This document shows, one piece after another, positions 1,171-27,328 of a DNA stretch of 36,130 nt. A program made the position numbers and the translations under genes. Source of the stretch: Gammaproteobacteria bacterium (lineage in GTDB: Bacteria > Pseudomonadota > Gammaproteobacteria > Pseudomonadales > Halieaceae); the NCBI GenBank assembly GCA_002748505.1, contig PDSN01000039.1:1-36130 (forward strand). The letters are read 5' to 3'. Within the stretch, counting starts at the first letter, position 1. Every line of letters starts with the position of its first letter. Under the pieces are notes generated by a model, which saw only the letters and a program-made list of their open reading frames with translations, did no database searches and was not told the DNA's origin.

Positions 1171-1204
1171 GAGAATTGGCATGGGCGAAGCTAAAGGAAC
1201 TGGC

Positions 1205-2062: not shown

Positions 2063-2156
2063 TCGATTGTCATTTTTGACGATCATAGAATACAAGCGGT
2101 AATTGGCTGGATTGAATAGCCGGTTTTTGTTGGGCCAATGGATTTGGAAATAGGGT

Positions 2157-3197: not shown

Positions 3198-3206
3198 GGG
3201 GGGCTT

Positions 3207-4430: not shown

Positions 4431-5988
4431 AGTTCTACCGACCTTAAGTAACACCCAGGGTCGTTACTATCGTTTTGCCCTGCTGGCCTGGACGTTGATT
4501 TGCGTGCTGGCTTTTTTTAGCACCTTTGCGACAATGGTGAACACCTGGATTGTTGCAGAAACCTATACCCACGGTTTTTTGATCGTGCCGATTTCTGCGT
4601 GGTTGCTGTGGGACGGCCGCCACCGTTATTTGAATCTGCCCATAAAACCTTGTTTGTTGCCTTTGGTTCTGCTGTTTGGCGCCAGTCTGCTGTGGTTTTT
4701 AGGCACGCTGGCTGGGGTGCAAGTGGTACAACAACTTGCGGCGGTGAGTGCCTTTATTGTCGGTGTATGGCTGATTCTGGGTTATCAGATTGCCTGGCGT
4801 ATCGCTTTTGCCCTGGCGTTCTTATTATTCGCCGTGCCCATGGGGCAGGGGTTGGTGCCTCCTATGATAGACCTCACCGCCGATGCAACGGTGTGGTTGA
4901 TAAAACTGACGGGTATTCCCATTTATCGTGAAGGTACTTTTTTTTCACTGCCCACGGGTAACTGGTCGGTGGTCGCTGCCTGTAGTGGCGTGCGCTATCT
5001 TATTGCCTCGGTCACCCTGGGTTGTTTGTACGCCTATATTACCTATCGCAGCCTGAAGAAACGTTTGGCTTTTGTGGCATTGTCGATTGTCGTGCCGGTT
5101 ATTGCCAATGTGTTTCGCGCCTTCTTGATTGTGATGATCGGTCATTTCAGTAATATGGAATTAGCCACTGGCGTGGATCATTTAATATACGGCTGGATTT
5201 TCTTTGGCGTGGTGATGCTGGTGCTGTTCAGTCTGGGTGCACGTTGGCGTGACGATATGACCGACAAACCAGCCGCCGTTGAAAAGCTACCAGATAACGG
5301 TGCGGATACCAGGACTCGCAGTTTGCCGATTGTTGGGGGACTTATGCTGGTATGTGTGCTCGCCGCGCCGTTGACTATTAAAGCGATGGATCAGCGCGCA
5401 CTGCCCGAGCAACTTGTACCACTCGCCCTGCCGTCGCGTATCAACGCCTGGCATCAGGTCGATATACCCTTTTCGTGGCAGCCCTATACTGTGGGTTCCC
5501 ACGAGCAGTTGTATCAGGCGTTTTCCGATAGTGAGACGGAGGTGGCGGTATATGTCGATTACTTCCTGTATCAGCAGGAAGGTGCAGAGGTAATCGATCG
5601 GCGCAGTCGTATTGTTGAGCCGGGTCGCAAAACACCGTGGCGAAAAACTGCGGATCTGGGTCTACAACGGGCGAACAGCGAGCCGTCTTTTGTGGTGAAT
5701 ACCTATGTGCTCACCGATGACAATCAGCGTTTGTTAGTGTGGGGGTGGTTTCGTGTGGGTGATAGCGCCACACCCAGTCCGTACATGGCAAAAATACAGG
5801 ATATTAAAAGCCGTTTGCTAGTTGGCAGGCGTGATGCGGCCAAGTTGTTTGTGGCGACAGTAATTCCCAATGAAGATCAGGGTCAGCGCCATGCTGAGCA
5901 AAAATTGCAGGCATTCGCAGAGCAGGTGCTGCCGCAAGTGATGCATGCCATTGATGCTGTGTCAGGTTGGGACAGCGATGCGCAATAA
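4423..5988 (+). CDS. xrtA: Exosortase A (XrtA) fused to a C-terminal EpsI-family domain
   Basis: 521-aa polytopic membrane protein with the exosortase catalytic-type motifs VVAACSGVRYL (Cys), ANVFRAF (Arg) and MIGHFSN (His). After about residue 300 there is one more TM helix and a soluble EpsI-like domain. The ATG overlaps the upstream stop by 8 nt, and GGGGAG lies upstream. Confidence 0.85.
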   Translation: MAEVLPTLSNTQGRYYRFALLAWTLICVLAFFSTFATMVNTWIVAETYTHGFLIVPISAWLLWDGRHRYLNLPIKPCLLPLVLLFGASLLWFLGTLAGVQVVQQLAAVSAFIVGVWLILGYQIAWRIAFALAFLLFAVPMGQGLVPPMIDLTADATVWLIKLTGIPIYREGTFFSLPTGNWSVVAACSGVRYLIASVTLGCLYAYITYRSLKKRLAFVALSIVVPVIANVFRAFLIVMIGHFSNMELATGVDHLIYGWIFFGVVMLVLFSLGARWRDDMTDKPAAVEKLPDNGADTRTRSLPIVGGLMLVCVLAAPLTIKAMDQRALPEQLVPLALPSRINAWHQVDIPFSWQPYTVGSHEQLYQAFSDSETEVAVYVDYFLYQQEGAEVIDRRSRIVEPGRKTPWRKTADLGLQRANSEPSFVVNTYVLTDDNQRLLVWGWFRVGDSATPSPYMAKIQDIKSRLLVGRRDAAKLFVATVIPNEDQGQRHAEQKLQAFAEQVLPQVMHAIDAVSGWDSDAQ

Positions 5989-7105
5989 GCACGCCGAGCG
6001 CCCCCTGGTTGTGCATGTAATCTTCGAGCTGGGTACAGGTGGTTTGGAAAATGGCCTGGTCAACATTATCAATCGTATGCCTGCTTATCGTCACGCCATC
6101 GTCTGTTTAACCCACAGTGGTATTTTTGCCGAGCGTATTACCGCCGACGTGGACATCTACGAGCTTCACAAAAAGCCCGGTCACGATCTTGGCGTGTTTT
6201 GGCGATTGTGGCGCTTGTTGACGCGGCTGCGCCCCGCGATTGTTCATACCCGCAATCTTGCGCCCCTGGAAACCCAGATTTTAGGTCTGCTGATGCCGCG
6301 GGTGAAGCGTGTGCACGGTGAACACGGTCGCGATATGGATGATCTGGATGGCAGCAATCCGCGGTATCGTTTTTTGCGTCGACTACTGCGCCCACTCATT
6401 CACCGTTACATTACCGTAAGTGAGGATTTGGCGTCTTATTTACGCTGCATAATCCGTGTGCCAGAGGCTAAAATACGGCAGATATACAACGGTGTGGATA
6501 CGTGCAAATTTAGCGCTGTCAGCAAGGCTCGTGTTGATGACCTGCCGGGAAGTTTTCAGGGTGATGTCAAAATTATTGGCACCGTAGGGCGTTTGGCGGC
6601 GGTGAAAGATCAGCCAACCCTGGTTAGAGCCTTTGCCAAAATTTGCGCAGATTACCCCGCGCGCCTGCTGCTTGTCGGCGATGGCCCCAAGCGCGGTGAG
6701 CTTGAAAACACCATCGCTGAGTTGGCTATCGGCGATAAGGTATACCTGGCAGGGGATCGCACCGATGTGCCCGCACTGTTGTCGAGTATGGACGTGTTTG
6801 TATTGCCATCATTAGCAGAGGGCATATCTAACACCATACTGGAGGCCATGGCCAGTGGTTTGCCGGTGATTGCCACCGATACCGGCGGCAATCCCGAGTT
6901 GGTGCGCGATGGCGAGAATGGCCTGTTGGTGCCGGTAGGTGATGATGACGCGCTGGCCTTGGCTCTGGCTAAGCTGCTGGCGTCTGATGGGCTGGCCCGG
7001 CAAATGGGCGAGCGCGGTCGTTGGCGTGTTCTACAGGAATTTGACTGGTCGCGCACGGTGGCGCGTTATCAGGGCGTTTATGATGAGTTGCTTGAGCGGA
7101 CTTGA
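5978..7105 (+). CDS. GT4-type glycosyltransferase, PEP-CTERM/EpsH1 system-associated (second sugar transferase)
   Basis: The ORF track starts at 5945, but MRNKHAERPLVVHVIFELGTGGLENGLVN from ATG 5978 matches the usual N-terminus. E-x7-E region EGISNTILEAMASGLPVIATDTGGNPELV. Overlaps the xrtA stop by 11 nt. Confidence 0.8.
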   Translation: MRNKHAERPLVVHVIFELGTGGLENGLVNIINRMPAYRHAIVCLTHSGIFAERITADVDIYELHKKPGHDLGVFWRLWRLLTRLRPAIVHTRNLAPLETQILGLLMPRVKRVHGEHGRDMDDLDGSNPRYRFLRRLLRPLIHRYITVSEDLASYLRCIIRVPEAKIRQIYNGVDTCKFSAVSKARVDDLPGSFQGDVKIIGTVGRLAAVKDQPTLVRAFAKICADYPARLLLVGDGPKRGELENTIAELAIGDKVYLAGDRTDVPALLSSMDVFVLPSLAEGISNTILEAMASGLPVIATDTGGNPELVRDGENGLLVPVGDDDALALALAKLLASDGLARQMGERGRWRVLQEFDWSRTVARYQGVYDELLERT

Positions 7106-7140
7106 GCGATGTATTACAGAGTGTAAATTGGTAAATTAGC

Positions 7141-9039
7141 ATGTGCGGCATTTCCGGTATTTTTGATACAACAGACAGGCGTCATTTAGATCGCGACTTA
7201 CTATCGCGAATGAATGAAACTCAGTTTCACCGCGGCCCCGACGAGGGTGGTATTCACGCCGAGCCGGGCGTGGTGCTTGGGCACAGGCGTTTATCTATTA
7301 TTGATCTGTCTCATGGCCAGCAACCCATGCTCACCGACGATGGCCGCGTGTCGTTGGTGTATAACGGTGAAATCTATAATTTCCCAGAGCTGACCGAACA
7401 ATTAAAAGCCCGGGGCTACACGTTCAGAACCCGCTGTGATACAGAGGTGATTCTATACGCCTGGTGTGAGTGGGGTGTGGATTGCGTGCAGCGTTTTCGC
7501 GGTATGTTTGCCTTTGCAATTCACGATCGCGAGCGCGGCTGTTTGTTTATGGCGCGCGATCGTTTAGGCATTAAACCGCTGTTTTATTCTCTGCTGGATA
7601 ATGGTCAGTTGGTGTTTGGTTCAGAATTAAAAGTGCTTAAGGAACACCCGCAACTGCCGCGGAAATTAAATCCCACGGCAGTGGAAGAGTATTTTGCCTT
7701 TGGCTACGTGGCCGAGCCCGACACCATCTATCAGGGCGTTTACAAAATGTCGCCGGGGCATTGCCTGCTGGTCGAGCGCGGGAAGCCTTTGGGGCAGCAG
7801 CAACAGTATTGGGATATTCCCTTTGCCAGCGCAGCGCCCATGTCCGAAGAGGAAATGCAAGCCGGACTGATTGAGCGCATGCGCGAAGCGGTGGATATTC
7901 GCATGGTGGCGGAGGTGCCATTGGGTGCGTTTTTATCCGGTGGCGTCGATTCCAGCGCTGTGGTGGCGATGATGGCGCAGCTACAGGAAGACCCCGTGCA
8001 CACCTGTGCCATCGGTTTTGATGTGGATAAATTTGACGAAACCAGCTACGCGCGCCTTGTCGCGGATCGCTATAAAACTGATCACTATGAAAAAACTGTC
8101 AGCAGCGACGATTTTGATTTAATCGACAAGCTGGGTTGGTTGTATGACGAACCTTACGCCGACAGCTCCGCCATTCCCACCTATCGCGTATGCGAATTAG
8201 CGCGCAACAAAGTAGTGGTGGCGCTTTCTGGTGATGGGGGCGATGAAAACTTAGCCGGTTATCGCCGCTACCGCTGGCACATGAATGAGGAAAAACTGCG
8301 CGGCAGATTGCCGCTGGGTTTGCGCAAAGCGGTGTTTGGCCCCCTGGGTAAATACTACCCCAAGGCCGATTGGGCGCCGCGTGTGTTCAGAGCGAAAACC
8401 ACCTTTGAGTCGCTGGCCTACAATTCTGTGGAAGCCTATTTGCACTCGGTGTCGATATGCTCCGGTGCGCAGCGTCGGGCGCTTTTTTCCGATGCCCTAA
8501 AACGCGAGCTGCAAGGCTACGATGCGATTGAGGTGTTTAATCGCCACGCTGCCAACTCGCCCACCCAGGATCCGCTGTCCCTGATTCAGTATCTGGATAT
8601 GAAAACCTATCTGGTGGGCGATATCCTTACCAAGGTTGATAGAGCGAGTATGGCGCATTCTCTGGAAGTGCGTGTGCCGCTGTTAGATCACAAATTTGTG
8701 GAGTGGACCTCATCTCTACCGGCAAACGTGAAATTGCGCGGTCAGGAAGGCAAATATATTTTGAAAAAATCCCTGGAGCCACATCTGCCCAATGATGTGT
8801 TGTACCGCCCCAAAATGGGTTTTGGCGTACCCCTGGCAAACTGGTTCAGGGGGCCACTGAGACAGCGTTTGCAAGACAGCATTGTGGAGGGCGGCCTGGC
8901 GAAGACGGGTTTGTTCAATCAAAGCTATTTGGCGGAGTTGGTGAATCAACACCTATCCGGGCGGCGCGATCACAGTGCCGCGCTCTGGACCTTACTGATG
9001 TTTGACGCCACCACTTCCGGCGAGAATTTTGGATTTTAA
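7141..9039 (+). CDS. Asparagine synthase (glutamine-hydrolysing) family amidotransferase, exosortase A-associated type
   Basis: 632 aa. N-terminal MCGISGIF (Ntn Cys nucleophile), the NGEIYN glutamine-site motif and the PP-loop SGGVDSS are all present. Confidence 0.88.
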   Translation: MCGISGIFDTTDRRHLDRDLLSRMNETQFHRGPDEGGIHAEPGVVLGHRRLSIIDLSHGQQPMLTDDGRVSLVYNGEIYNFPELTEQLKARGYTFRTRCDTEVILYAWCEWGVDCVQRFRGMFAFAIHDRERGCLFMARDRLGIKPLFYSLLDNGQLVFGSELKVLKEHPQLPRKLNPTAVEEYFAFGYVAEPDTIYQGVYKMSPGHCLLVERGKPLGQQQQYWDIPFASAAPMSEEEMQAGLIERMREAVDIRMVAEVPLGAFLSGGVDSSAVVAMMAQLQEDPVHTCAIGFDVDKFDETSYARLVADRYKTDHYEKTVSSDDFDLIDKLGWLYDEPYADSSAIPTYRVCELARNKVVVALSGDGGDENLAGYRRYRWHMNEEKLRGRLPLGLRKAVFGPLGKYYPKADWAPRVFRAKTTFESLAYNSVEAYLHSVSICSGAQRRALFSDALKRELQGYDAIEVFNRHAANSPTQDPLSLIQYLDMKTYLVGDILTKVDRASMAHSLEVRVPLLDHKFVEWTSSLPANVKLRGQEGKYILKKSLEPHLPNDVLYRPKMGFGVPLANWFRGPLRQRLQDSIVEGGLAKTGLFNQSYLAELVNQHLSGRRDHSAALWTLLMFDATTSGENFGF

Positions 9040-9048
9040 GGCAGCGCT

Positions 9049-10263
9049 ATGCATATTCTTCACATTTTGGATCATTCCATCCCACTGCACAGCGGTTATA
9101 CCTTTCGCACTCGCAATATTTTGTTACAGCAGCGTGCGCGCGGTTGGCAGACCTCGCATATTACCGGCTTGAAGCAGGGTTTTGCCAGCGAGCCAAAAGA
9201 AACCGTTGATGAGCTGACCTTTTATCGCACGCCAGCTGCCGAGGGTGTGTTGGACCGTTTGCCGGTGATTAACCAGTGGCGGGTGATAAACACCCTGGCA
9301 AAGCGTCTAAAGCAGGTTGTCGATGAGATTAAGCCCGATATTTTACACGCGCACTCACCGGCACTTAACGGTTTGGCGGCGCTTAAGGTTGCGCGCCAGA
9401 CCGGTATACCCCTGGTGTATGAATGCCGCGCATTCTGGGAAGATGCGGCGGTGGATCACGGCACCAGCAGTGAGGGGGGGCTGCGTTACAAGCTCACCCG
9501 CGCACTTGAAAGCCGTGTTTTTGCCAAAGCCGATGCGGTGACAACCATTTGTGAAGGGTTAAGAAAAGATATTGTTGCCCGCGGCATCAGCCCCGATAAG
9601 GTCACCGTGATTCCAAACGCGGTGGATATCGAAAACTTCGCCATGGATCAGCCCGTGAACCTTGATTTACAGGAAAAGCTGGGCTTGAAAGACAAGCAGG
9701 TGCTGGGTTTTATCGGTTCGTTTTACGCCTATGAAGGTCTGCCGCTGATTTTGGACGCAATGCCCGCACTGGCAAAACAGTTTCCCGATATAAAGCTGCT
9801 GTTGGTTGGCGGTGGCCCGCAGGAAGATTTGATCAAGCAAAAAACCGCAACCCTGCAGTTGCAGGATCGGGTTATTCTCACCGGCCGCGTGCCCCATAGC
9901 GAGGTGCAGGACTACTACAATCTGGTGGATATTTTTGTGTATCCGCGTCTCTCCATGCGCTTGACTGATTTGGTGACGCCATTAAAACCGCTGGAAGCCA
10001 TGGCGCAGGGGCGTTTGGTGGTAGCGTCTGACGTGGGCGGACACCAGGAATTGATAGAAAACGGTAAAACCGGCCGTTTGTTTAAGGCAGGTGATGCGAA
10101 GGATTTAGCCGCAGTGGTGGCGAAGTTGCTCGACGATGAAGAACGGTGGCCTGCGATGCGCGCTGCCGGGCGCGATTATGTGGAAAACGTGCGCAACTGG
10201 CCCAATTCGGTGGCAAATTATCAAGCCATTTACGACAAATTGCTTGCGGGAAAACGCGCGTGA
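9049..10263 (+). CDS. GT4-type glycosyltransferase, exosortase A-associated (third sugar transferase)
   Basis: 404 aa. N-terminal MHILHILDHSIPLHSGYTFRTRNIL is characteristic of the third XrtA-locus transferase as I recall it. C-terminal PLKPLEAMAQGRLVVASDVGGHQELI. Confidence 0.8.
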   Translation: MHILHILDHSIPLHSGYTFRTRNILLQQRARGWQTSHITGLKQGFASEPKETVDELTFYRTPAAEGVLDRLPVINQWRVINTLAKRLKQVVDEIKPDILHAHSPALNGLAALKVARQTGIPLVYECRAFWEDAAVDHGTSSEGGLRYKLTRALESRVFAKADAVTTICEGLRKDIVARGISPDKVTVIPNAVDIENFAMDQPVNLDLQEKLGLKDKQVLGFIGSFYAYEGLPLILDAMPALAKQFPDIKLLLVGGGPQEDLIKQKTATLQLQDRVILTGRVPHSEVQDYYNLVDIFVYPRLSMRLTDLVTPLKPLEAMAQGRLVVASDVGGHQELIENGKTGRLFKAGDAKDLAAVVAKLLDDEERWPAMRAAGRDYVENVRNWPNSVANYQAIYDKLLAGKRA

Positions 10264-11324
10264 AAATCGGTTTAGTTGGTCCTGTTCCACCGCCAGCGGG
10301 TGGTATGGCGATGCAAACCTTGCAACTCAAAGAGCTGCTGGAGAGTGAAGGGCAGAGCGTAGTCATGCTGGCCACCAACGGCCCCTACAAGCCAGCCTTC
10401 GCTGAAAAACTCAAAGGTATTCGCGCGCTGTTTCGCCTGCTGCCGTATTTAGCTGGCTTATGGAATTTATGTTCGCGCGTTGAATTGATTCACTTGATGG
10501 CAAATTCCGGTTGGTCATGGCTGCTTTTCAGTGCGCCCTGTCTAGTGATTGCCAAACTTCGCGGTACGCCGGTTATCGTCAACTATAGAGGCGGAGAAGC
10601 AGACAGTTATTTCGCCAACAACGCCTGGCATGTCAGGCCGATTATGCGCCTGGCCGCAAAGGTGATTGTGCCTTCGCGCTTTTTAAAGCATGTGTTTTTA
10701 CGCTACGACCTGCGCACCGATGTTATTCCCAATATTGTGCGTCTTGAGCGTTTTTCAGGCCAGCGCGCATCTGTGCACGATGGTGCGCATCTCGTTATTA
10801 CCCGCAATTTAGAACCTATTTACGGCATTCCCACTGCGCTAAAAGCACTGGCACTTGTTGCTGAAAAATTCCCGCAAACACACTTATCCATTGCTGGTAG
10901 TGGGCCGCAATTGGAAGAGCTTGAAACCCTGGCGGAAACCCTGGGCGTGCGGGATAAGGTTTCTTTTCTCGGGCGGCTTGATCGCGATGCGATAGACGCA
11001 CTGTACCGCAGCGCCGATGTGCTGCTCAATCCCACCACCGTGGACAATATGCCCAACTCACTGTTAGAGGCGATGGCCGCCAAAGTGTGCATTGTCAGCT
11101 CCAATGTGGGTGGTGTGCCGTTTATGGTGGAACATGAAAAAACCGCTTTGTTAACGCCGGTTGGCGATGAACAAGCGATGGCCGATGCCATATCCTGTCT
11201 ACTCACCGATGAGCTGTTGCGCAAACGACTGGTGACCGCTGCTTACAACAGTGTGCAACGCTGTGCGTGGCCCGAAGTGAAAAATCAATGGCTAAGCACG
11301 TATCAGGAGGTGCTGCGCGCATGA
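10260..11324 (+). CDS. GT4-type glycosyltransferase
   Basis: The ORF track starts at 10146 inside the previous gene. GTG 10260 forms a GTGA overlap with the upstream stop and gives VKIGLVGPVPPPAGGMA. C-terminal PNSLLEAMAAKVCIVSSNVGGVPFMVEHEKTA. Confidence 0.75.
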   Translation: MKIGLVGPVPPPAGGMAMQTLQLKELLESEGQSVVMLATNGPYKPAFAEKLKGIRALFRLLPYLAGLWNLCSRVELIHLMANSGWSWLLFSAPCLVIAKLRGTPVIVNYRGGEADSYFANNAWHVRPIMRLAAKVIVPSRFLKHVFLRYDLRTDVIPNIVRLERFSGQRASVHDGAHLVITRNLEPIYGIPTALKALALVAEKFPQTHLSIAGSGPQLEELETLAETLGVRDKVSFLGRLDRDAIDALYRSADVLLNPTTVDNMPNSLLEAMAAKVCIVSSNVGGVPFMVEHEKTALLTPVGDEQAMADAISCLLTDELLRKRLVTAAYNSVQRCAWPEVKNQWLSTYQEVLRA

Positions 11325-12670
11325 GTTTTTATACGTCTTTGGTGGCGAATATTTTATTTCCGCTGCATGAGCGCTTAAAAAAACACAGTACCATCGCTGT
11401 GCACAAGCAGATGGAAGCTACTCAGTGGTACAAGCCGGAGCATTTAGAACAACTGCGCGTACAGCGTCTGCGCACGTTTTTGCAGCGTATTGGCAAAGAT
11501 GTGCCTTATTATCGTGAACTGTTTGCCAGGCTTGAGTTTAACCCCGACACCGTCAATTCCCTGGACGATATTCAGCAATTACCCCTGATGGGCAAGCCGG
11601 AAATTCGCGGGCATTCCGACGCTATGAAAGCCGACAACGCACAGGGTCTGGCGCGATTTAACACTGGCGGTTCCAGCGGCGAGCCCTTGATTTTTTATAT
11701 TGGCAATGAGCGCGTCAGTCACGATGTGGCGGCGAAACGTCGCGCAACCCGCTGGTGGGGTGTTGATATTGGCGATCCCGAAATTGTGGTCTGGGGCTCG
11801 CCCATTGAACTGGGCGCACAGGATCGCGTGCGTATGCTGCGCGATAAACTGTTTCGCACCGAACTGTTATCAGCTTTTGAAATGACAGAGGATAATTTAA
11901 ACCATTTTGTCTCGGTCATTCGTGAAATGCGCCCCAAAATGTTGTTCGGTTATCCCTCCTCGCTATCCCATATCGCCAAACACGCCAGGCAGAAAGGCGT
12001 GCCCATGGATGACCTGGGTATAAAGGTGGCGTTTGTAACCTCTGAGCGTTTATACGACGAGCAGCGTCTGATCATTGAAGAGGTCTTCGCCTGTCCGGTG
12101 GCAAATGGCTACGGTGGCCGCGATGCGGGCTTTATCGCCCACCAATGCCCAGAGGGCAATATGCATATTACCGCTGAAGACATGCTGGTGGAAATCATTG
12201 ACAAGGACGGCAATACCCTGCCCGCAGGGCAAAGTGGTGAAATTGTCGTCACCCATTTTGCCACCGCTGATTTCCCCTTTTTGCGCTATCGCACCGGCGA
12301 TGTGGGTGTGCTGGATGACGAGTTGTGTCGCTGCGGTCGCGGTCTGCCATTGTTAAAAGAAATACAAGGCCGGACTACGGATTTTGTGGTCGCAAAAAAC
12401 GGCGCGGTGATTCACGGTCTTGCACTGATTTATATTTTGCGTGATTTGCCGGGCATCGCTGAGTTTAAGGTGGTACAGGAATCCCTGGATCTCACTCGGG
12501 TCATGTTGGTAAAAGGCCCTGATTTTGCAGCCAGTAATGAAGACGCCATCCGCGATGTTTTTCAGCAGCGCCTGGGTAAAGATGTGGATGTGGTATTTGA
12601 ATACAGCGACCTTATTCCGGCGGAAAAATCCGGCAAATTCCGGTATATCATCAGCAAAGTAGCGGTTTGA
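11321..12670 (+). CDS. Adenylate-forming enzyme of the phenylacetate-CoA ligase / CapK / coenzyme F390 synthetase-like family
   Basis: ATG 11321 forms an ATGA overlap with the upstream stop. NTGGSSGEPLIF (AMP-binding P-loop-like) and FLRYRTGDVG motifs. About 449 aa, typical for CapK-like proteins of capsule loci. Confidence 0.75.
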   Translation: MSFYTSLVANILFPLHERLKKHSTIAVHKQMEATQWYKPEHLEQLRVQRLRTFLQRIGKDVPYYRELFARLEFNPDTVNSLDDIQQLPLMGKPEIRGHSDAMKADNAQGLARFNTGGSSGEPLIFYIGNERVSHDVAAKRRATRWWGVDIGDPEIVVWGSPIELGAQDRVRMLRDKLFRTELLSAFEMTEDNLNHFVSVIREMRPKMLFGYPSSLSHIAKHARQKGVPMDDLGIKVAFVTSERLYDEQRLIIEEVFACPVANGYGGRDAGFIAHQCPEGNMHITAEDMLVEIIDKDGNTLPAGQSGEIVVTHFATADFPFLRYRTGDVGVLDDELCRCGRGLPLLKEIQGRTTDFVVAKNGAVIHGLALIYILRDLPGIAEFKVVQESLDLTRVMLVKGPDFAASNEDAIRDVFQQRLGKDVDVVFEYSDLIPAEKSGKFRYIISKVAV

Positions 12671-13770
12671 TGCGCGTTTTCCTGGCTGTCTTGCTGTGCC
12701 TGCCCTGGCTGGTCAGCGCCGAGGGCGTGGATAAAACCTTTAGCTTTGCAGATTGTCACCGCGTACAGGGCAAGGTGGTCTGTGACCCACGGGAAAAATC
12801 GACTGCCAGGCCTGTGCAAAAAAACAATCTGCAGGCCCTGGTCAATGTCACGCCAAGTGGTGGCACATTGACGATTGCACCCGGCGAATATCAGCAGGGT
12901 TTGATTCTGTACCGTCCAATTACCCTCAATATGCGAGGGGTGCATATGCATAAAGTGGTGTGGAAAAAAGCTGCGCTGATTGTCGAGCAAACAGAACCCG
13001 GCCCTATTGTTATCAATGACTATCAGCACGATGGCAGGCACTCAGATGCTGTTTACAGAAACCTGTCGGGGCTGCGCATCAGCGGGAAACAGTTTGATGT
13101 CACGTTGAATAACGCCCATATTCAACACACCGCAATGGGTGTATTGACGGACAATAAGGGCGGTAGTCTGACGATCAATGACTCGGTGATTGAAAACATC
13201 GGCGGCATTCCCGGGCAGTCCAGTCTCAGTCATATCGTATACGCGGGATTGATTGACACCCTGACCATTCAGGACACTGTCTTACGAAATTCTACGGGCA
13301 AAGGGCATTTGTTGAAGTCCCGTGCCAAACGCACCACTGTCAGTCGTTCTGAGCTTGCGGGCAAAGACGGTGAACACAGCCGTGTAATTGATATTTCCTG
13401 CGGTGGGTTTTTGGCTGTGACCAACAGTCTTTTACAGGCAAGTGCCAATGCCGATAACGCCGATCTTATTGCCATGGGCGTGGAAGCCCCGCAGAATTGC
13501 CACAACACCAGCCGCGACAATAAGGTGGTGATTACCGGCAATACCATCCTGTTTGATATACGCCATAAGCAACAACTACCCTTGGCGGATCAGATTTTTT
13601 TTAACTGGCAGGGGCCGGTGAGTTCCCTGAACGTCAGCGACAACATCATTGTCGCGCCGGGGCGGTTTTTGTGGCAGGCCCCGTGGCGTCATGTGGATAT
13701 CAGCATTCCCAAAAGCGCGAATAACTGCATTTATAAAACGCGCGAGGCGGCGGGTTTAGCGGGTTTTTGA
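12670..13770 (+). CDS. Secreted right-handed parallel beta-helix protein (putative polysaccharide lyase/epimerase/hydrolase)
   Basis: Signal peptide MRVFLAVLLCLPWLVSAEG. Repeated short N/D/T-x-hydrophobic rungs occur (LTINDSVIEN, LTIQDTVLRN, LAVTNSLLQA, VVITGNTILF, LNVSDNIIV). The start overlaps the upstream TGA by 1 nt. Confidence 0.6.
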   Translation: MRVFLAVLLCLPWLVSAEGVDKTFSFADCHRVQGKVVCDPREKSTARPVQKNNLQALVNVTPSGGTLTIAPGEYQQGLILYRPITLNMRGVHMHKVVWKKAALIVEQTEPGPIVINDYQHDGRHSDAVYRNLSGLRISGKQFDVTLNNAHIQHTAMGVLTDNKGGSLTINDSVIENIGGIPGQSSLSHIVYAGLIDTLTIQDTVLRNSTGKGHLLKSRAKRTTVSRSELAGKDGEHSRVIDISCGGFLAVTNSLLQASANADNADLIAMGVEAPQNCHNTSRDNKVVITGNTILFDIRHKQQLPLADQIFFNWQGPVSSLNVSDNIIVAPGRFLWQAPWRHVDISIPKSANNCIYKTREAAGLAGF

Positions 13771-20914: not shown

Positions 20915-22234
20915 ATGAAACGTCTGGTATCTGCGCTGGCGCTGGTCGCGGTCAGCGGCCTATTAAATGCGGCTGATTTGTCGCAACAGGTGAAACAGGA
21001 TTACGATGCCCATCTGGGCGCTTTGTTTGACCATTTCCACAGAAATCCCGAGCTGTCTTTGATGGAGCATAAAACCGCGGCGCGCCTTGCCAAAGAACTG
21101 CGCGATGCGGGTTATGATGTCACGGAAAACGTGGGTGGCACCGGGGTAGTGGCCATACTGAAAAACGGCCCAGGTCCGCTGGTGATGATGCGCGCGGATA
21201 TGGACGGCCTGCCGGTGGAAGAAAAGTCCGGCCTGCCCAATGCGTCAAAAGCCAAGCAGCGGGACTGGGATGGTAATGAGGTGTATGTGATGCACGCCTG
21301 CGGTCACGATGTGCACATGACCTCGCTGGTAGGTACAGCGCGGGCGATGGCGGCGGCCAGGGATAAGTGGTCTGGCACCTTGATGTTGATCGGTCAGCCG
21401 GCGGAGGAGCGCGTCGCTGGTGCGCGGGCGATGATGGCTGATAAACTCTGGCAGCGCTTTGGCAAGCCCGACTACGCGCTGGCATTTCATGTGGCATCGA
21501 CCTTGCCCACGGGTAAACTCGCCGCGGTGGTTGGTGCGGCCTATTCCGGCGCAGATACCGTGGATATTATCGTGCACGGCGTAGGCGCCCACGGTGCCAG
21601 CCCCCACGCGGGTATTGACCCGGTGCTGCTGGGCTCGCAAATCGTGGTCGCTTTGCAGAGTGTGATCAGCCGCGAAATGCCACCGCGCGAGGCGGGGGTG
21701 ATTACGGTGGGCTCCTTCCATGCAGGCACCAAACACAATATTATTTCCGATCGCGCTCACTTGCAGCTCACCGTGCGCCACGACGATCCCAAAGTACGCA
21801 CGGTTTTGCTTGAGGGTATTAAGCGCGTGGCAGTCAATATGGGACGCGTGGCGGGTCTGCCCGATGACAAGCTGCCGGAGGTCATTGTCTCGAACGAGTC
21901 TGTCCCGCCCACGCAAAACGACCATGCCCTGACCAAACGTCTGCGCGGTGTCTGGCGGGATAAACTGGGCAAGGATATTTTATTCGAAGGTAAGCGCGCG
22001 GGTATGGGCGCGGAGGATTTTCCGGTGTTTACTAAGGAACCCGCGATCCCCAGCACCTACTTTGCAGTGGGTGGCACTCCGCCTGAAGATTTTGTCCGCG
22101 CTGAAAAGGGCGGTAAACCCGTGGCCACCCACCATTCACCGCTGTTTAAAATCGCCGCTGAACCCAGCGTGCGTTTAGGTGTTGAAGCCACTGTGGTTGC
22201 GCTGCTGGATTTACTGCAAAAGCCCGCCAAATAA
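20915..22234 (+). CDS. Periplasmic M20-family amidohydrolase (M20D aminoacylase/hippurate hydrolase-like)
   Basis: ATG 20915 with GAGG upstream. Signal peptide MKRLVSALALVAVSGLLNA. Metal-ligand motifs MHACGHDVH and GQPAEE. Confidence 0.85.
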   Translation: MKRLVSALALVAVSGLLNAADLSQQVKQDYDAHLGALFDHFHRNPELSLMEHKTAARLAKELRDAGYDVTENVGGTGVVAILKNGPGPLVMMRADMDGLPVEEKSGLPNASKAKQRDWDGNEVYVMHACGHDVHMTSLVGTARAMAAARDKWSGTLMLIGQPAEERVAGARAMMADKLWQRFGKPDYALAFHVASTLPTGKLAAVVGAAYSGADTVDIIVHGVGAHGASPHAGIDPVLLGSQIVVALQSVISREMPPREAGVITVGSFHAGTKHNIISDRAHLQLTVRHDDPKVRTVLLEGIKRVAVNMGRVAGLPDDKLPEVIVSNESVPPTQNDHALTKRLRGVWRDKLGKDILFEGKRAGMGAEDFPVFTKEPAIPSTYFAVGGTPPEDFVRAEKGGKPVATHHSPLFKIAAEPSVRLGVEATVVALLDLLQKPAK

Positions 22235-22246
22235 CCGAGAAATACT

Positions 22247-23410
22247 GTGCGTAAACTGATAAACCGTATGCGAGGTCGCAATGATACAGACGCGACCATC
22301 GCCGCAACAGAGTCAAGCTCCGCACCTGGCGCTGAGCAAACAAACGCGGACAATACACCGGCGATAAAGCGCTCTCCGGTCATCCCCGGCACGGATAAAA
22401 TCCCCTTTGCGCCGATTCCGGTAAAACGCTATGCGGATGAATTGCCACTGTTGGCATTGCCCGCGCGCAGTGCCGACGGCCCGCGTATCAGTGTGGTCAT
22501 GGTGGTGTACAAAATGGCGCGGCAGGCACTCAACACGGCGTTGAGTCTGGTGCCGCCCTACCAGCGCGGGCTTGATAATGAGGACGTCGAGTTGATTGTG
22601 GTGGAAAACCGCAGCGATGCCAATATGGACGAGAGCGCGCTGACAGCGATTTCCCCCTGTATTTCCTACTATCTGCGCGATGAAACCGAACCCACTCCGG
22701 TACACGCCGCGAATTTTGGCATCGAAAAAGCCCGCGGTGAGTTGGTGGTGCTGTTGATTGACGGTGCGCGTATGGTCACGCCGGGGCTTCTCAATCAAAT
22801 GCTGGGCGCGAGCCAGTTGGCGATACAGCCGGTGATTGCCACACCCAGTTACCATTTAGGTGAAAAAGTGCAGCAGCAGGCCATGCTGGAAGGTTATGAC
22901 GAGGAAGCAGAACAGGTCTTGCTGGCATCGATTAACTGGCCGCAGCAGGGTTATAAACTCTACGATATTTCCTGTTTAAGTCGCACCAGTATGGGGGGTA
23001 TTTTCAGACCGTTTAGTGAAAGCAATTGCCTGGCTGCGCCAAAAAAATTACTGGAAGAACTCGGCGGGTTCGATCGGCGTTTTAATGAAACCGGTGGTGG
23101 TCAGGCGAATTTGGATTTGTACAAACGCCTGGTTGAGCACGAGCACAGTCAGTTTCTGGTCTTGCCCGGTGAAGGCTCTTTTCACCAGTTTCACGGCGGT
23201 GTTACCACGGGGCAGCAGGGCGAGAAGCGTCATCAGGCGATGGTGGATCACTTCGCTCAGTACGCCGCCATTCGCGGCGGTGCCTATGTCGCGCCCAATA
23301 AAAGACCGATCTACGTGGGCGCAGTGCCGGACAATGCCGTGCGCTTTATTCGCAACAGTGGCAATGCGCTGATTAAGGCATTACAAGAGGAGCAGGCGGA
23401 GCAGTCATGA
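22247..23410 (+). CDS. GT-A fold (family 2-like) glycosyltransferase with a low-complexity N-terminal extension of about 90 aa
   Basis: Only 12 nt after the M20 stop. ISVVMVVYKMARQALNTALSL, VELIVVENRSDA and LLIDGARM (D-x-D position) follow the GT2 Rossmann-like pattern. The start is uncertain (GTG 22247 or ATG 22268). Confidence 0.6.
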   Translation: MRKLINRMRGRNDTDATIAATESSSAPGAEQTNADNTPAIKRSPVIPGTDKIPFAPIPVKRYADELPLLALPARSADGPRISVVMVVYKMARQALNTALSLVPPYQRGLDNEDVELIVVENRSDANMDESALTAISPCISYYLRDETEPTPVHAANFGIEKARGELVVLLIDGARMVTPGLLNQMLGASQLAIQPVIATPSYHLGEKVQQQAMLEGYDEEAEQVLLASINWPQQGYKLYDISCLSRTSMGGIFRPFSESNCLAAPKKLLEELGGFDRRFNETGGGQANLDLYKRLVEHEHSQFLVLPGEGSFHQFHGGVTTGQQGEKRHQAMVDHFAQYAAIRGGAYVAPNKRPIYVGAVPDNAVRFIRNSGNALIKALQEEQAEQS

Positions 23411-24174
23411 GTACAGCAGCAGATACTACCTTGTTAGATTTTTCAGCCCTGCCTGCGCTGGCGCAAGTGCAGGCGCAAAATTATCAAAGTGCAAAGCCTT
23501 TTCCCCATGCGGTATTTGACAATTTTATCAGTCTCGATCTTGCCCGAGCCATCGCCGCCGATGTGCCGGCGCCCGGTGCGGAAAAAAACTGGCGCGCGAT
23601 TGTGGACAATTACAGCGATGGCGATGCGGCGCAGCACGGCAAGTTGGGCTTGCCCCACGAGGCGGAATTCTCGCCGTTGATTCGGGCTTTGTTGTGGGAA
23701 CTTAACAGCGGGCCGTTTTTGCGCTTTTTAGAAACTTTAACGGGTATTAAGGGTTTAATTGCTGACCCGCGCTTACAGGGCGGTGGGGTACATCAGATTT
23801 TGCCGGGTGGCTATTTAGGCGTTCATGCGGATTTTACCGAGCACAAATACTACGGTTTATCGCGCCGTTTGAATGTGCTGATTTATTTGAATGAAAACTG
23901 GCAAAATGAGTGGGGCGGACATTTGGAGTTATGGGAGCGGGATTTATCCCGTTGTGCGCGCCGCGTGCAGCCCACGCTGGGGCGCTGCGTCATTTTTTCC
24001 ACCGACGACACTTCTTATCACGGCCACCCCGAGCCCCTGGCCTGCCCGGAAGGTGTGACGCGCAAATCCCTCGCGCTTTATTATTATACTAACGGCAGGC
24101 AGGACGCCGTGGATTCGGTCACCCATACTGAGTGGCATAAAACCCACCGCACTGAACTGCCAATAGTGGAGTGA
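23407..24174 (+). CDS. 2-oxoglutarate/Fe(II)-dependent oxygenase (prolyl-hydroxylase-like DSBH)
   Basis: ATGA overlap with the upstream gene. H-x-D in YLGVHADF, distal His in SYHGHPEP, basic residue in VTRKSLALYYY. RRLNVLIYLNENWQNEWGGHLELW resembles the P4H/Ofd1-type core. Confidence 0.75.
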   Translation: MSTAADTTLLDFSALPALAQVQAQNYQSAKPFPHAVFDNFISLDLARAIAADVPAPGAEKNWRAIVDNYSDGDAAQHGKLGLPHEAEFSPLIRALLWELNSGPFLRFLETLTGIKGLIADPRLQGGGVHQILPGGYLGVHADFTEHKYYGLSRRLNVLIYLNENWQNEWGGHLELWERDLSRCARRVQPTLGRCVIFSTDDTSYHGHPEPLACPEGVTRKSLALYYYTNGRQDAVDSVTHTEWHKTHRTELPIVE

Positions 24175-24176
24175 CT

Positions 24177-24647
24177 ATGCGTTATTTGCGATTGGCGGCA
24201 CTGGGTGAGCATTTGCAACAGCAAGTTGAGCAGCAGCCCTTTGCTCTGCCTCTGACCTTGAAGCACCTGATTGAACCGGGTGCACTTGCCGCGTTGCAGC
24301 AGGGCTTTGCGGCCGCCTGTGAAACCTCGGACACACTGCCACTGCCGTATTTACGTTTGGTGCAAGAACTGAGTAGCCACGGCCTGTTAATGCGCCTTGA
24401 GCGTTTAACCGGGCTGACACGGCTGCTCCCCGACCAGCAGCTGATAAGTGGCGGCTGTCGGCATCGGGGTGTTGAGGTGGCGAGCATTCATCCGGAGACC
24501 GGCCTGCGTTTGGCCCTGTCGCTGCGCATTGACCTGGGGCAGACATCGAGTACCGGAGATGGGCTGCTTTACAACACCGCTGTTGCCGATGATAAACCAG
24601 GGTTTTTGATGCACTACTATTATTCCCCTTTTTCTGGTAGGGGATAA
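24177..24647 (+). CDS. Hypothetical protein; truncated, probably non-catalytic paralogue of the preceding oxygenase
   Basis: GGAG lies 5 nt upstream of ATG 24177 (GTG 24171 is an alternative, overlapping the upstream stop). 14 of 30 ungapped identities by eye between ELSSHGLLMRLERLTGLTRLLPDQQLISGG and ELNSGPFLRFLETLTGIKGLIADPRLQGGG of the oxygenase. Confidence 0.5.
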   Translation: MRYLRLAALGEHLQQQVEQQPFALPLTLKHLIEPGALAALQQGFAAACETSDTLPLPYLRLVQELSSHGLLMRLERLTGLTRLLPDQQLISGGCRHRGVEVASIHPETGLRLALSLRIDLGQTSSTGDGLLYNTAVADDKPGFLMHYYYSPFSGRG

Positions 24648-24726
24648 TAGCCGCCAGTGGCGTTAGTTCGCCCCCTGCGGTACACTGCGCGCCTTTTTTA
24701 GCAGATTAAACGGGGTGTTATTCGCG

Positions 24727-25825
24727 ATGTTGGAAATAAATCCTTTGGTGCAAACCCTGAAGGACATCGAAATGCGTACCGATGTGCTTAGGGGGTATCT
24801 TTGACTACGCCGAGCGCAAGGACAGGCTGTCGGAAGTCGAATTAGAATTAGCCGAGCCCAGTGTTTGGGATGACCCCGAACGCGCCCAGGCGCTTGGCAA
24901 AGAGCGCTCAACCCTTGAAACGGTGGTGCACACTATCGAGAGTTTGACCGCGGGGGCGGGGGACGCGGCGGATATTTTAGAGTTAGCCGCTGCCGAGGAC
25001 GACGAAGACACCGTTGCCGAGGTGGAGCGGGAAATCAACGCCCTGATCGCGCAGCTGGAGAAACTGGAATTTCGCCGCATGTTCTCCGGCGAGATGGACC
25101 CCAATAACGCATATTTGGATATTCAGGCAGGCTCCGGTGGTACCGAGGCACAGGATTGGGCGGAAATGCTGCTGCGCATGTACCTGCGCTGGGGTGAGTC
25201 GCACGGCTTTGACACCCAGTTGATCGAGGTGTCCGCAGGGGAAGTGGCGGGCATCAAGAGTGCTACCATTCAGTTTGTCGGTGAGTACGCCTTCGGTTGG
25301 CTGCGCACGGAAACCGGTGTGCATCGCCTGGTGCGAAAATCCCCCTTTGATTCCGGCAATCGCCGCCATACCTCTTTTTCCTCGGTGTTTGTCTCACCGG
25401 AGATCGACGACAATATCGAGATTGACATCAATCCCGCCGACATTCGCGTGGACACTTACCGCGCCAGCGGCGCCGGTGGTCAGCATGTTAACAAGACGGA
25501 CTCGGCGGTGCGTTTGACCCACAACCCCTCGGGCATTGTGGTGCAGTGCCAGACCGAGCGTTCGCAGCATCAAAACAAAGACAACGCGATGAAGCTGCTG
25601 CGCGCCAAGCTCTACGAGATGGAAATGTTCAAACGCAATGAAGAGAAGCAGGCGATGGAAGACAGCAAGGCCGACATCGGTTGGGGCAGTCAGATTCGCT
25701 CCTACGTGCTGGATTCTTCACGTATTAAAGACTTGCGCACCGGGGTGGAGACCAGCAACACTCAGGCGGTATTGGACGGTGATTTAGATGCTTTTATTGA
25801 AGCGTCTTTAAAAAGCGGATTGTAA
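24727..25825 (+). CDS. prfB: Peptide chain release factor 2, expressed through a programmed +1 frameshift
   Basis: Frame 0 runs from ATG 24727 through CTT (24799-24801) and ends at in-frame TGA 24802-24804. The +1 frame continues from 24803 to 25825. SPF (RKSPFDS) and GGQ ([10 protein letters not shown]) motifs are present. The joined length is about 365 aa. Confidence 0.95.
24790..24805 (+). promoter_or_regulatory. prfB: prfB autoregulatory +1 frameshift site AGG GGG TAT CTT TGA C
   Basis: An internal SD-like AGGGGG, a 3-nt spacer, then the slippery CTT followed by UGA-C. This is identical in form to the E. coli site. Confidence 0.95.
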
Positions 25826-25834
25826 GGATTAGTC

Positions 25835-27328
25835 ATGACAGAGCACGACAATGCGTCACAGGGCGCAGCCGAAAATAAACTGATTGCCGAGCGCCGCGCG
25901 AAACTCGATAGCTGGCGCAAGCAGGGTGGCGCTTTCCCCAATGACTTTCGCCGCAGCGCGTGGGCGGGCGAGCTACAGGCCAGTCACGGCGCGCGCGAAA
26001 AAGCGGATTTAGAAGCCGCTGGCGAGGTGTTCAGCGTGGCGGGCAGGTTGATCCGCAACCGCGGCGCGTTTATGTTGATTCAAGATGGCAGCGGTGAAAT
26101 ACAGCTGTACTTAAATCGCAAAGGTCTGGATGAGGCCACCCTTGCCCAGATCAAAACCTGGGATCTGGGCGATATCGTTTGCGCCACCGGCGAGTTGCAC
26201 AAGTCCGGTAAGGGCGATTTGTATATCAATATGACCGAGGCCAAACTACTGACCAAGGCGCTGCGCCCCTTGCCCGATAAGTACCACGGCCTGGCAGACC
26301 AAGAGTTGCGCTATCGTCAGCGCTACGTGGATTTGATTGTCAACGCCGAGTCCCGCGCAGTGTTTTGCACCCGCTCAAAAATCATCGACTTTATCCGCTC
26401 CTACATGAAAGCGCAGGATTTTATGGAAGTGGAAACGCCGATGATGCATGTGATTCCCGGTGGCGCGACCGCGCGGCCTTTTGTTACGCATCACAATGCT
26501 CTGGATCAGGATATGTATCTGCGCATTGCACCAGAGTTGTACTTGAAGCGCCTGGTGGTGGGCGGTTTTGAACGGGTGTTTGAGATCAACCGCAGCTTCC
26601 GCAACGAGGGCTTGTCTACCCGTCACAACCCCGAGTTCACCATGCTTGAATTCTACCAGGCCTATGCAGATCACAACGAACTGATGGACATGACCGAGGA
26701 CATGCTGCGCCAGCTCACCCAGGCGGTACTGGGTTCTACACAGGTCAGCTATCAGGGCGAAAGCTATGACTTTGCCAAGCCCTTCGTGCGGATGACGGTG
26801 CTGGAAGCGATTTTGGCGCACAACCCGGAATTGGATGCACAAACACTGAGCGATGAGCAGGGCGCGCGCGATTACGCGAAAAAGCTGGGTATTGAACTGC
26901 AAGAGGGCTATGGCCTGGGCAAGGTGCAGATTGAAATATTTGAAGCCACGGTGGAGGAGAAGCTGCTTCAGCCGACCTTCATCACCGCCTATCCCGCCGA
27001 GGTGTCGCCCCTGGCCCGCCGCAGCGATGCCGACCCCTTTGTGACTGATCGCTTTGAGTTCTTTGTCGGTGGGCGCGAGCTGGCCAACGGCTTTTCCGAG
27101 CTTAACGATGCCGAAGATCAGGCTCAGCGCTTTGCCGCTCAGGTTGCAGAGAAAGATGCCGGCGACGATGAGGCCATGCACTTTGACGCCGATTATGTGC
27201 GCGCGCTGGAATACGGTATGCCGCCGACTGCGGGCGAGGGCATTGGTATTGACCGTTTGGTGATGCTGCTCACCGATTCGCCCTCAATCCGCGACGTGTT
27301 GCTGTTTCCGCATATGCGGCCGGAGTGA
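25835..27328 (+). CDS. lysS: Lysine--tRNA ligase, class II
   Basis: 497 aa. Class II motif 2 region [29 protein letters not shown] and motif 3 region [12 protein letters not shown]. Conserved prfB-lysS linkage. Confidence 0.95.

Follow-up and report, generated by a model that had tools for sequence, protein, structure and literature searches.

A glycosyltransferase, oxygenase and pseudo-oxygenase gene triad upstream of prfB-lysS in a Halieaceae genome: a probable surface-glycan tailoring module

Three coupled genes between an M20 amidohydrolase gene and prfB

The stretch of DNA analysed here, 36,130 nucleotides of contig PDSN01000039.1 (hereafter, the window), belongs to a metagenome-assembled genome of the family Halieaceae with a size of 1.69 Mb and a completeness of 84%. 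Three genes on its forward strand, encoding a glycosyltransferase (GT), an Fe(II)/2-oxoglutarate (2OG) oxygenase (Oxy) and a degenerate relative of that oxygenase (ORF3), are packed between an M20 amidohydrolase gene and the prfB-lysS pair, which encodes release factor 2 (RF2) and lysyl-tRNA synthetase (LysRS). The original prediction, made from the letters of the window, had tentatively placed this triad in translation, as a candidate module for hydroxylation followed by glycosylation. The comparative analyses reported here point to a different role, in which the triad probably tailors a cell-surface glycan from the cytoplasm.

ORF1 (22247..23410, + strand) starts with GTG 12 nt past the stop codon of the M20 gene and encodes the GT, a soluble protein of 387 aa. 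ORF2 (23407..24174, + strand), which encodes the 255-aa oxygenase, overlaps ORF1 through the ATGA at 23407-23410. ORF3 ends at 24647, 79 nt before the ATG of prfB at 24727, and has two possible starts, 24171 and 24177; the ORF2/ORF3 junction is a GTGA overlap with the former and a 2-nt gap with the latter, with a GGAG 6 nt upstream. Because its homologues start with MRYLRL, the ATG at 24177 is taken as the true start of ORF3 (24177..24647, + strand), which gives a protein of 156 aa whose gene is translationally coupled to that of the oxygenase. Reading the sequence thus reproduced the three coupled ORFs and the 12-nt and 79-nt flanking distances that had been described. The proposal that the genes form a unit also held. 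The 4-nt and 2-nt junctions are preserved in close relatives, and the GT and the oxygenase co-occur widely. No transmembrane-like or signal-like segment was found in the GT, the oxygenase or ORF3, while the upstream M20 protein has one.

The glycosyltransferase

Assignment of the ORF1 product to the GT2 family (GT-A fold), as originally proposed, was supported by its homologues, by invariant residues and by a match to PF10111 (Glyco_tranf_2_2; E 1.9e-8, 34.5 bits) above the curated cut-off of 27.3; the match to PF00535 was marginal (23.2 bits for a cut-off of 23.3), and a sequence search against the PDB gave no significant match. The nucleotide-binding motif is E120-N-x-S. The DxD position reads D172-G173-A174-R175, which is invariant in 14 homologues and retains the first Asp alone, and near the C-terminus there is an invariant E309-G-x-F-H313-Q-x-H316-G-G motif (EGSFHQFHGG in the window protein). 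Together, D-G-A-R and EGxFHQxHGG may form a metal site that is unusual for a GT-A enzyme, in which the conserved HQFHGG might compensate for the missing Asp of the DxD.

The N-terminal extension of this protein, first described as about 90 aa of low-complexity sequence, does exist and has a length of approximately 78 aa. A basic N-terminal motif and the sequence IPFAPIPVKRY are conserved in homologues, and because the extension is conserved in these parts, it is not merely low-complexity; this part of the original description applies only to some of its length. Approximately 1220 GT homologues were found, mostly in Halieaceae and other Pseudomonadales, including some double-GT fusions of approximately 665 aa, and GT paralogues sit in Wzm/Wzt operons.

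The oxygenase

The ORF2 product matched PF13640 (2OG-FeII_Oxy_3; E 3.4e-19). Its complete H-x-D...H triad, noticed in the original prediction, is well founded, since H140-A-D142 and H205, which bind iron, are invariant in 12 homologues along with R219 and S221; the 2OG-binding basic residue R219 and S221 are intact in the window protein. An AlphaFold2 (AF2) model (pLDDT 88) gave 262 PDB fold matches at E ≤ 1e-3 in Foldseek, and the 50 best listed were all 2OG oxygenases. Tpa1 (E 2.8e-10) and OGFOD1 headed these matches; the Tpa1/Ofd1/OGFOD1 group had E-values of 2.8e-10 to 6e-9 and query TM-scores (TMq) of 0.61-0.68, so that the proposed likeness to Tpa1 and OGFOD1 appears real at the level of the predicted fold.

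Two other enzymes of the same fold, PolD from S. cacaoi (PDB 9BLQ; polyoxin pathway) and PasI from P. asymbiotica (PDB 9EI6/9EI7), are 2OG oxygenases that act on octosyl-acid phosphate sugar nucleosides, and they matched the window oxygenase about as well as Tpa1 did (E ~2e-9, target TM-scores (TMt) of 0.71-0.76). The P. putida prolyl 4-hydroxylase (P4H)/EF-Tu structure and PHD2 were also among the closest solved folds. By sequence, the best PDB match was PolD (hmmsearch, E 3.3e-7), OGFOD1 was reached by profile search with E 4.9e-6, and the peptide-modifying oxygenase YhhC was a weak NCBIfam match (E 6e-7), far under the cut-off of that family. Because Tpa1/OGFOD1 and PolD/PasI score equally, the fold cannot discriminate between a protein and a sugar substrate.

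The oxygenase family is large and extends to viruses, with more than 4000 sequence clusters at E ≤ 1e-3 and no fewer than 587 loci in reference genomes. In a phylogenetic tree, the window protein grouped with the upstream copies (Oxy1 clade) of the tandem oxygenase pairs of other genomes with a support of 98/99, which identifies it as an Oxy1 orthologue. A literature search that covered the oxygenase family, 9BLQ, PolD/PasI and bacterial P4H-GT operons did not turn up a description of the family or of the arrangement of GT, oxygenase and dead paralogue.

ORF3, a pseudo-oxygenase

The third gene was originally read as a dead paralogue of the oxygenase, and this reading was substantiated. ORF3 had no Pfam match; BLASTP aligned part of it to the oxygenase (E 2e-4), and profile-profile alignment with hhalign matched residues 59-136 of ORF3 to residues 93-201 of the oxygenase with a probability of 98% and E 1.8e-13. 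The positions of the HxD motif are occupied by non-conserved residues or gaps and a deletion has removed the segment with the distal His and the Arg that binds 2OG, so that none of the metal and 2OG ligands is left. These alignments show that ORF3 is homologous to the oxygenase, with a shortened fold derived from the double-stranded beta-helix (DSBH), and that it cannot be an active member of the family. Its AF2 model (pLDDT 74) gave weak fold matches to 2OG oxygenases, the best of them to a bacterial P4H (E 6e-3).

Several findings indicate that ORF3 is maintained rather than decaying. Its reading frame is unbroken and its motifs are conserved in at least five lineages, and its tree has the same topology as that of the adjacent oxygenase. 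Synonymous sites were saturated, so dN/dS was set aside and only the proportions of differing nonsynonymous (pN) and synonymous (pS) sites were compared. Against its closest homologue, ORF3 had a pN of 0.23 and a pS of 0.69, as compared to a pN of 0.09-0.11 and a pS of ~0.7 for the GT and the oxygenase; with a pN of 0.07-0.11 among its neighbours, ORF3 evolves 2-3 times faster than they do.

The ORF3 family is small (113 representatives at E ≤ 1e-3), and a full-length ORF3 was confined, among 151 Halieaceae species genomes, to that of the window and to one other genus. In the others, its profile matches the downstream member of tandem pairs of full-length oxygenases better than the upstream member, and in the tree ORF3 attaches on the side of the downstream copies (Oxy2) by a very long branch, a placement that is suggestive only. 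From the profile preference and the tree attachment, ORF3 is therefore best read as a putative shortened and inactivated descendant of the second oxygenase of a tandem pair.

Two observations in other genomes concern such paralogues. The second tandem oxygenase copy of one genome (G008:C13:102670-103413, locus L014) has an in-frame TAA, which may mean that decay or remodelling of the downstream paralogue is recurrent. In Halioxenophilus sp. WMMB6, a 199-aa ORF3-like protein (locus L030, 10764-11363) is flanked by two full-length oxygenases, so that this lineage carries a dead paralogue in addition to the two active ones.

Glycan loci in the same genome and in other bacteria

The genomic neighbourhoods of the GT and oxygenase relatives were surveyed by tblastn and our own ORF calling, which takes the GC content of third codon positions into account. 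Within the genome of the window, the GT has its closest paralogue on another contig (G000:C135, locus L138, 175-6494), in a compact operon that encodes, in order, a Wzm-like ABC-2 permease, a Wzt-like ABC ATPase, a double GT of 663 aa and a TylF/CmcI-like methyltransferase (MT24), with a divergent gene for a sulfatase-family membrane protein. This double GT shares 41% identity with the window GT in one half and 37% in the other. In other Halieaceae, the GT and tandem oxygenases occur in one cluster with Wzm/Wzt, MT24, PhyH, MBOAT and sulfotransferase genes. One locus (L111) has the contiguous order Wzm-Wzt-PhyH-Oxy-Oxy-MT24-GT, two others (L088 and L105) have sulfatase-Oxy...MT24-GT-GT-Wzm-Wzt, and in a further two (L013 and L016) the orthologue of the window GT leads the order GT-GT-MT24-Oxy2-Oxy1.

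Twenty-one loci, 20 of them carrying a GT of the window type, were analysed in detail. A GT cluster was present in 19 of the 21 and MT24 in 13; MBOAT was found in nine loci, FAD amine-oxidase-like and PhyH genes in eight loci each, and sulfotransferase and sulfatase-family genes in six each. Genes for polytopic membrane proteins and for a Wzm-like permease stood alongside, and no conserved gene for a candidate substrate protein was seen in these 21 loci. A search for PhyH in the window's genome gave no match, as did the same search in control genomes.

A similar context was found for more distant oxygenases (44-55% identical to that of the window) in 80 loci from many phyla. Genes for GT2 and GT4 enzymes were present in 35 and 22 of these loci, respectively, Wzx-type flippase genes in 24 (10 within 500 nt of the oxygenase gene) and Wzy-like genes in 11 (nine within 500 nt), such that at least 54 of the 80 loci had a glycan-type neighbour. 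The Pfam tally of the 80 immediate neighbours was led by GT2, flippase, Wzy_C, sulfotransferases and methyltransferases.

Viral relatives

Relatives of the oxygenase with 33-57% identity are encoded on 91 IMG/VR contigs (loci L140-L219). Among 122 viral neighbours within two genes, there were 14 GT2 enzymes, 12 S-adenosylmethionine-dependent methyltransferases and six NAD sugar epimerases/dehydratases, five of which matched GDP_Man_Dehyd; MT24, DegT and PhyH were also found within this distance. The best structural match to the window oxygenase in any library was a 616-aa protein of Mimiviridae sp. ChoanoV1 in BFVD (A0A5B8IHX4), which is annotated as a GDP-mannose 4,6-dehydratase (GMD). This match (E 4.6e-20, TMq 0.82, 27% identity over 244 columns) was ten orders of magnitude ahead of the others among predicted viral structures, and on the basis of its model the ChoanoV1 protein appears to be a fusion of the oxygenase family with the nucleotide-sugar enzyme GMD. 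A search for oxygenase-GMD fusions in IMG/VR found none; three long frames had either a methyltransferase N-terminus or no match. The viral copies, too, point to sugars. In some viral contigs, PhoH and cell-wall hydrolase genes lie beside the oxygenase gene.

The triad and the prfB-lysS pair

The gene immediately downstream of the triad, prfB (24727..25825, + strand), encodes RF2 with PCRF and RF-1 domains and has the canonical +1 frameshift site CTT TGA C at 24799-24805; it is followed by lysS (25835..27328, + strand; Pfam tRNA-synt_2), which encodes a class II lysyl-tRNA synthetase. The order M20-GT-Oxy-ORF3-prfB-lysS is kept in contigs whose oxygenases are 84% and 71% identical to that of the window. 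Contigs with 63-64% oxygenase identity have the order M20-M13-PhyH-GT-Oxy-ORF3, after which comes ppk (polyphosphate kinase) in convergent orientation. In five other Halieaceae genera, the GT and tandem oxygenases are located away from prfB, at a distance of 0.6-0.9 Mb on the same contig in two genomes (G001 and G004). Of 24 relatives, 23 have retained prfB and lysS as a pair, with lysS always following prfB, and neither a triad gene nor an M20 gene was found within 1.5 kb upstream of prfB in the 23 relatives with the pair. Among the 80 cross-phylum oxygenase loci, prfB was present in none and lysS in one, and no ribosomal or translation family was among the top neighbour families in the Pfam tally, whether the top 25 for the 80 immediate neighbours or those of the viral neighbours.

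The 79-nt spacer between ORF3 and prfB contains a conserved, promoter-like box, CCCCCTGCGGTACACTGCGCGCCTTTTTT, at 24671..24699 (+ strand), which comprises a -10-like TACACT, a GC-rich discriminator and a T-run and is conserved among three lineages whose synonymous sites are saturated. About 13 of the 23 relatives in which the triad does not precede prfB have the same -10-like box (TAGAAT, TAAAAT or TACACT), with a GC-rich discriminator and a T-run, at approximately 30-45 nt from the prfB ATG. The presence of the box in these relatives suggests that prfB is driven by a promoter of its own. The box looks like a -10 element whose discriminator is rich in GC, and this layout is associated with growth-rate or stringent control. 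The consensus of this family-wide box, seen in the window and in L114, L119, L121, L126 and other loci, is (G/C)TA(G/A/C)A(A/C)T, then GCGCGCC and then a T-run. A terminator between ORF3 and prfB was considered and rejected, as the candidate was a weak 5-bp hairpin with pattern matches at chance level and a spacer fold z of 0.27; the weak terminator-like match was reinterpreted as the -10/discriminator box of prfB.

Outside the nearest clade, the triad was thus never found beside prfB or lysS, and its relatives are located in polysaccharide-type loci. The functional link to RF2 and LysRS that had been proposed is not supported, given that the gene order is lost at 63% identity, that 23 relatives have prfB-lysS without the triad and that prfB was found in none of the 80 cross-phylum loci. 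The caveat in the original prediction that the linkage could be positional was borne out, and it is very likely that the adjacency of the triad and prfB is just that.

Proposed role and alternative explanations

The reading that we favour, and hold to be probable though well short of certain, is that the GT, the oxygenase and ORF3 form a cytoplasmic tailoring module of a Wzm/Wzt (ABC-transporter-dependent) cell-surface glycan pathway. Because the triad itself lies between M20 and prfB, its membership in such a pathway rests on its relatives and on the paralogy of the GT. In the proposed mechanism, the oxygenase would oxidise, most likely hydroxylate, a sugar, either while it is still a nucleotide-sugar precursor or once it is part of the lipid-linked chain. 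The GT, a soluble GT2 enzyme with the chain-building double GTs of the same pathway as paralogues, would add a sugar to the chain, perhaps at or near the residue modified by the oxygenase, and ORF3 would be retained as a non-catalytic partner in a complex with the active oxygenase, where it would serve stability, the presentation of the substrate or regulation. The genome is small, and in it the module would have become separated from the rest of its cluster and would now reside upstream of an autonomous prfB-lysS unit. The specific order of steps, in which a sugar is first hydroxylated and then glycosylated, is possible but doubtful, and a still more specific scheme, in which an obligate heterodimer of active and dead oxygenase creates an acceptor hydroxyl on a deoxy-sugar that the coupled GT extends, is rather unlikely.

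Some points weigh against a glycan-tailoring role. The triad of the window is outside any glycan locus, between a secreted M20 peptidase and prfB, and approximately one third of the cross-phylum loci have no recognisable glycan neighbour. The closest folds of the modelled oxygenase include true protein prolyl hydroxylases, such that its structure cannot exclude a protein substrate, and the apparent ChoanoV1 fusion is a single case, known from a predicted structure and an annotation only. In addition, substrate and chemistry are read entirely from context, and no paper was found on either the oxygenase family or the GT family.

Among the alternatives, the one that fares best, while still unlikely, is that the triad tailors not a surface polymer but a soluble metabolite (a peptide, for example, or a modified amino acid or nucleoside-type compound), perhaps together with M20 and, in relatives, with M13 and PhyH. 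The collinear and tightly spaced M20-(M13-PhyH)-GT-Oxy-ORF3 arrangement, which is common to two genera, would fit such a pathway, as would PolD and PasI, which are small-molecule enzymes of the same fold, and the YhhC match, weak and far below cut-off as it is. However, M20 has a signal-like N-terminus while the triad is cytoplasmic, M20 is unlinked to the triad in other genera, and no locus showed core biosynthetic genes (nonribosomal peptide synthetase, polyketide synthase, radical SAM or precursor peptide); Wzm/Wzt, Wzx/Wzy, GTs, MBOAT and sulfotransferases recur as partners instead.

It is quite unlikely that the triad is a decaying remnant, in which ORF3 is a non-functional leftover of a second oxygenase and the GT and the oxygenase no longer cooperate. 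The small genome, the fast evolution of ORF3, the in-frame stop in the second oxygenase copy of G008 and the split of the cluster across contigs would all be expected under decay, but ORF3 is intact in at least five lineages with a pN well under its pS, its tree matches that of the oxygenase, the two short gene junctions are preserved, and the GT and the oxygenase are strongly constrained.

A third alternative, that the module hydroxylates and then glycosylates secreted or surface proteins, such as the PEP-CTERM proteins of an exosortase system encoded upstream, is very unlikely. The window does contain an XrtA/EpsH exosortase exopolysaccharide locus and the oxygenase has the fold of protein hydroxylases, yet the linkage of the triad to the exosortase locus is missing in the contigs with 63% identity and in other genera, no conserved candidate substrate gene adjoins the triad, and all three proteins are without export signals.

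The weakest explanation is the one first proposed, in which a protein of translation (RF2, uS12, EF-P or EF-Tu) is hydroxylated by a Tpa1/OGFOD1-like enzyme and next O-glycosylated by the GT-A enzyme, in functional connection with prfB-lysS; it is highly improbable, because the resemblance of the oxygenase fold to Tpa1/OGFOD1 and the EF-Tu prolyl hydroxylase, the JGI label of homologues ("Rps23 Pro-64 3,4-dihydroxylase Tpa1-like"), the soluble, cytoplasmic nature of all three proteins and the gene order kept in the two nearest lineages are countered by the loss of linkage at 63% identity and its absence from 23 relatives and 80 cross-phylum loci, by the conserved promoter-like box that prfB carries, by GT paralogues that are polymer-building enzymes of Wzm/Wzt operons, and by an identity to Tpa1/OGFOD1 of just 16-19%, with the sugar-nucleoside enzymes PolD and PasI scoring equally. 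The tie to protein hydroxylation that had been drawn from the fold is likewise not sustained, as PolD and PasI fit it as well as Tpa1 does and the relatives lie in polysaccharide-type loci.

Comparison with known systems

The pieces of the module are of known kinds: a GT2 enzyme, a PF13640 oxygenase and a Wzm/Wzt pathway. WbdA-WbdD of E. coli O8/O9a represents Wzm/Wzt O-polysaccharide assembly with multi-domain GTs and a terminating methyltransferase. Wzm, Wzt, the sugar-type methyltransferase MT24 and a double-domain GT from the family of the window GT are likewise encoded in the window's genome and its relatives; unlike in such systems, the GT, oxygenase and ORF3 genes of the window are detached from the exporter genes. 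To our knowledge, none of the characterised Wzm/Wzt systems includes an Fe/2OG oxygenase.

Precedent for 2OG oxygenases that tailor a lipid-linked envelope glycoconjugate from the cytoplasmic side is provided by two Fe(II)/2OG dioxygenases of lipopolysaccharide, KdoO and LpxO, which act by hydroxylating 3-deoxy-D-manno-octulosonic acid (Kdo) or a lipid A acyl chain. Unlike the window oxygenase, these enzymes belong to the Kdo_hydroxy family and the Asp/Asn beta-hydroxylase type and not to PF13640. PolD and PasI share the fold of the window oxygenase and accept phosphorylated sugar substrates, with an octosyl-acid phosphate ligand in the crystals, but their identity to it is 16-21% and they come from biosynthesis clusters for nucleoside antibiotics, not from envelope glycan loci.

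The uS12 prolyl hydroxylases Tpa1/Ofd1/OGFOD1 have a pair of DSBH domains, active at the N-terminus and degenerate at the C-terminus, which is loosely echoed by the oxygenase and ORF3. In those proteins, however, both domains are in one polypeptide of ~550-640 aa, whereas here there are two genes, one for a single-domain protein of 255 aa and the second truncated; the identity is 16-19%, the Oxy/ORF3 duplication arose within the bacterial family, and there is no association with translation genes across genomes. It is hard to credit that the oxygenase and ORF3 correspond, as two separate bacterial proteins, to the double-DSBH ribosomal prolyl hydroxylases of eukaryotes and act on a cytoplasmic protein that is hydroxylated and then glycosylated. 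Hydroxylation-dependent protein glycosylation is represented by PhyA/Gnt1 of Skp1, by LH3 and GLT25D1 of collagen and by mimivirus L230. The triad resembles these systems in that a gene for a PHD-like oxygenase is coupled to one for a GT-A enzyme; it differs from them in that the GT is a GT2 enzyme with polymer-type paralogues, not of family GT60 or GT25, in its glycan-export context and in that no substrate protein is evident in the related loci. TlxI-TlxJ (PDB 7VBQ) and P3H1-CRTAP (PDB 8K0M), which were among the weak fold matches of ORF3, combine an active oxygenase with a non-catalytic, (partly) homologous subunit and serve as an analogy only.

Taken as a whole, a bacterial hydroxylation/glycosylation system aimed at RF2 or LysRS is unsupported, and nothing in the locus speaks for a role in translation. 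What emerges is a widespread and apparently uncharacterised oxygenase family that recurs in surface-glycan loci and beside genes for nucleotide-sugar enzymes. Little is known of how Fe/2OG-dependent enzymes tailor the surface glycans of bacteria; such chemistry could account for unusual hydroxylated or rearranged sugars in the polysaccharides of marine bacteria and could also bear on interactions between phages and host surfaces. A conserved dead paralogue that is coupled to an active oxygenase, in turn, represents a small case of pseudo-enzyme retention.

Neighbouring genes in the window

A complete-looking exosortase (XrtA/EpsH-type) exopolysaccharide locus (34..13770, + strand; assigned by Pfam) ends approximately 8.5 kb upstream of the triad and is regarded as context only. 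In addition to the XrtA/EpsH exosortase and a DUF3485 protein, it encodes a UDP-GlcNAc 2-epimerase, a DUF3473 polysaccharide deacetylase, a FemAB-like protein, four GT4 enzymes, AsnB and a CapK-like ligase. Its linkage to the triad was not kept among relatives, neither in the 63%-identity contigs nor in other genera.

The M20 amidohydrolase gene (20915..22234, + strand), identified by Pfam and NCBIfam TIGR01891, encodes a protein with a signal-like, hydrophobic N-terminal segment. Its adjacency to the triad is conserved only within the clade of the window and is absent in other genera; M20 may be co-transcribed with the triad and is treated as context, as it is not demonstrably a member of the module. 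In the two loci with 63-64% oxygenase identity (L027 and L028, 4500-11300), the genes for M20, an M13 endopeptidase, PhyH, GT, oxygenase and ORF3 are located on one strand with gaps of 3-65 nt, such that two secreted peptidases, M20 and M13, are collinear with the cytoplasmic triad in two genera.

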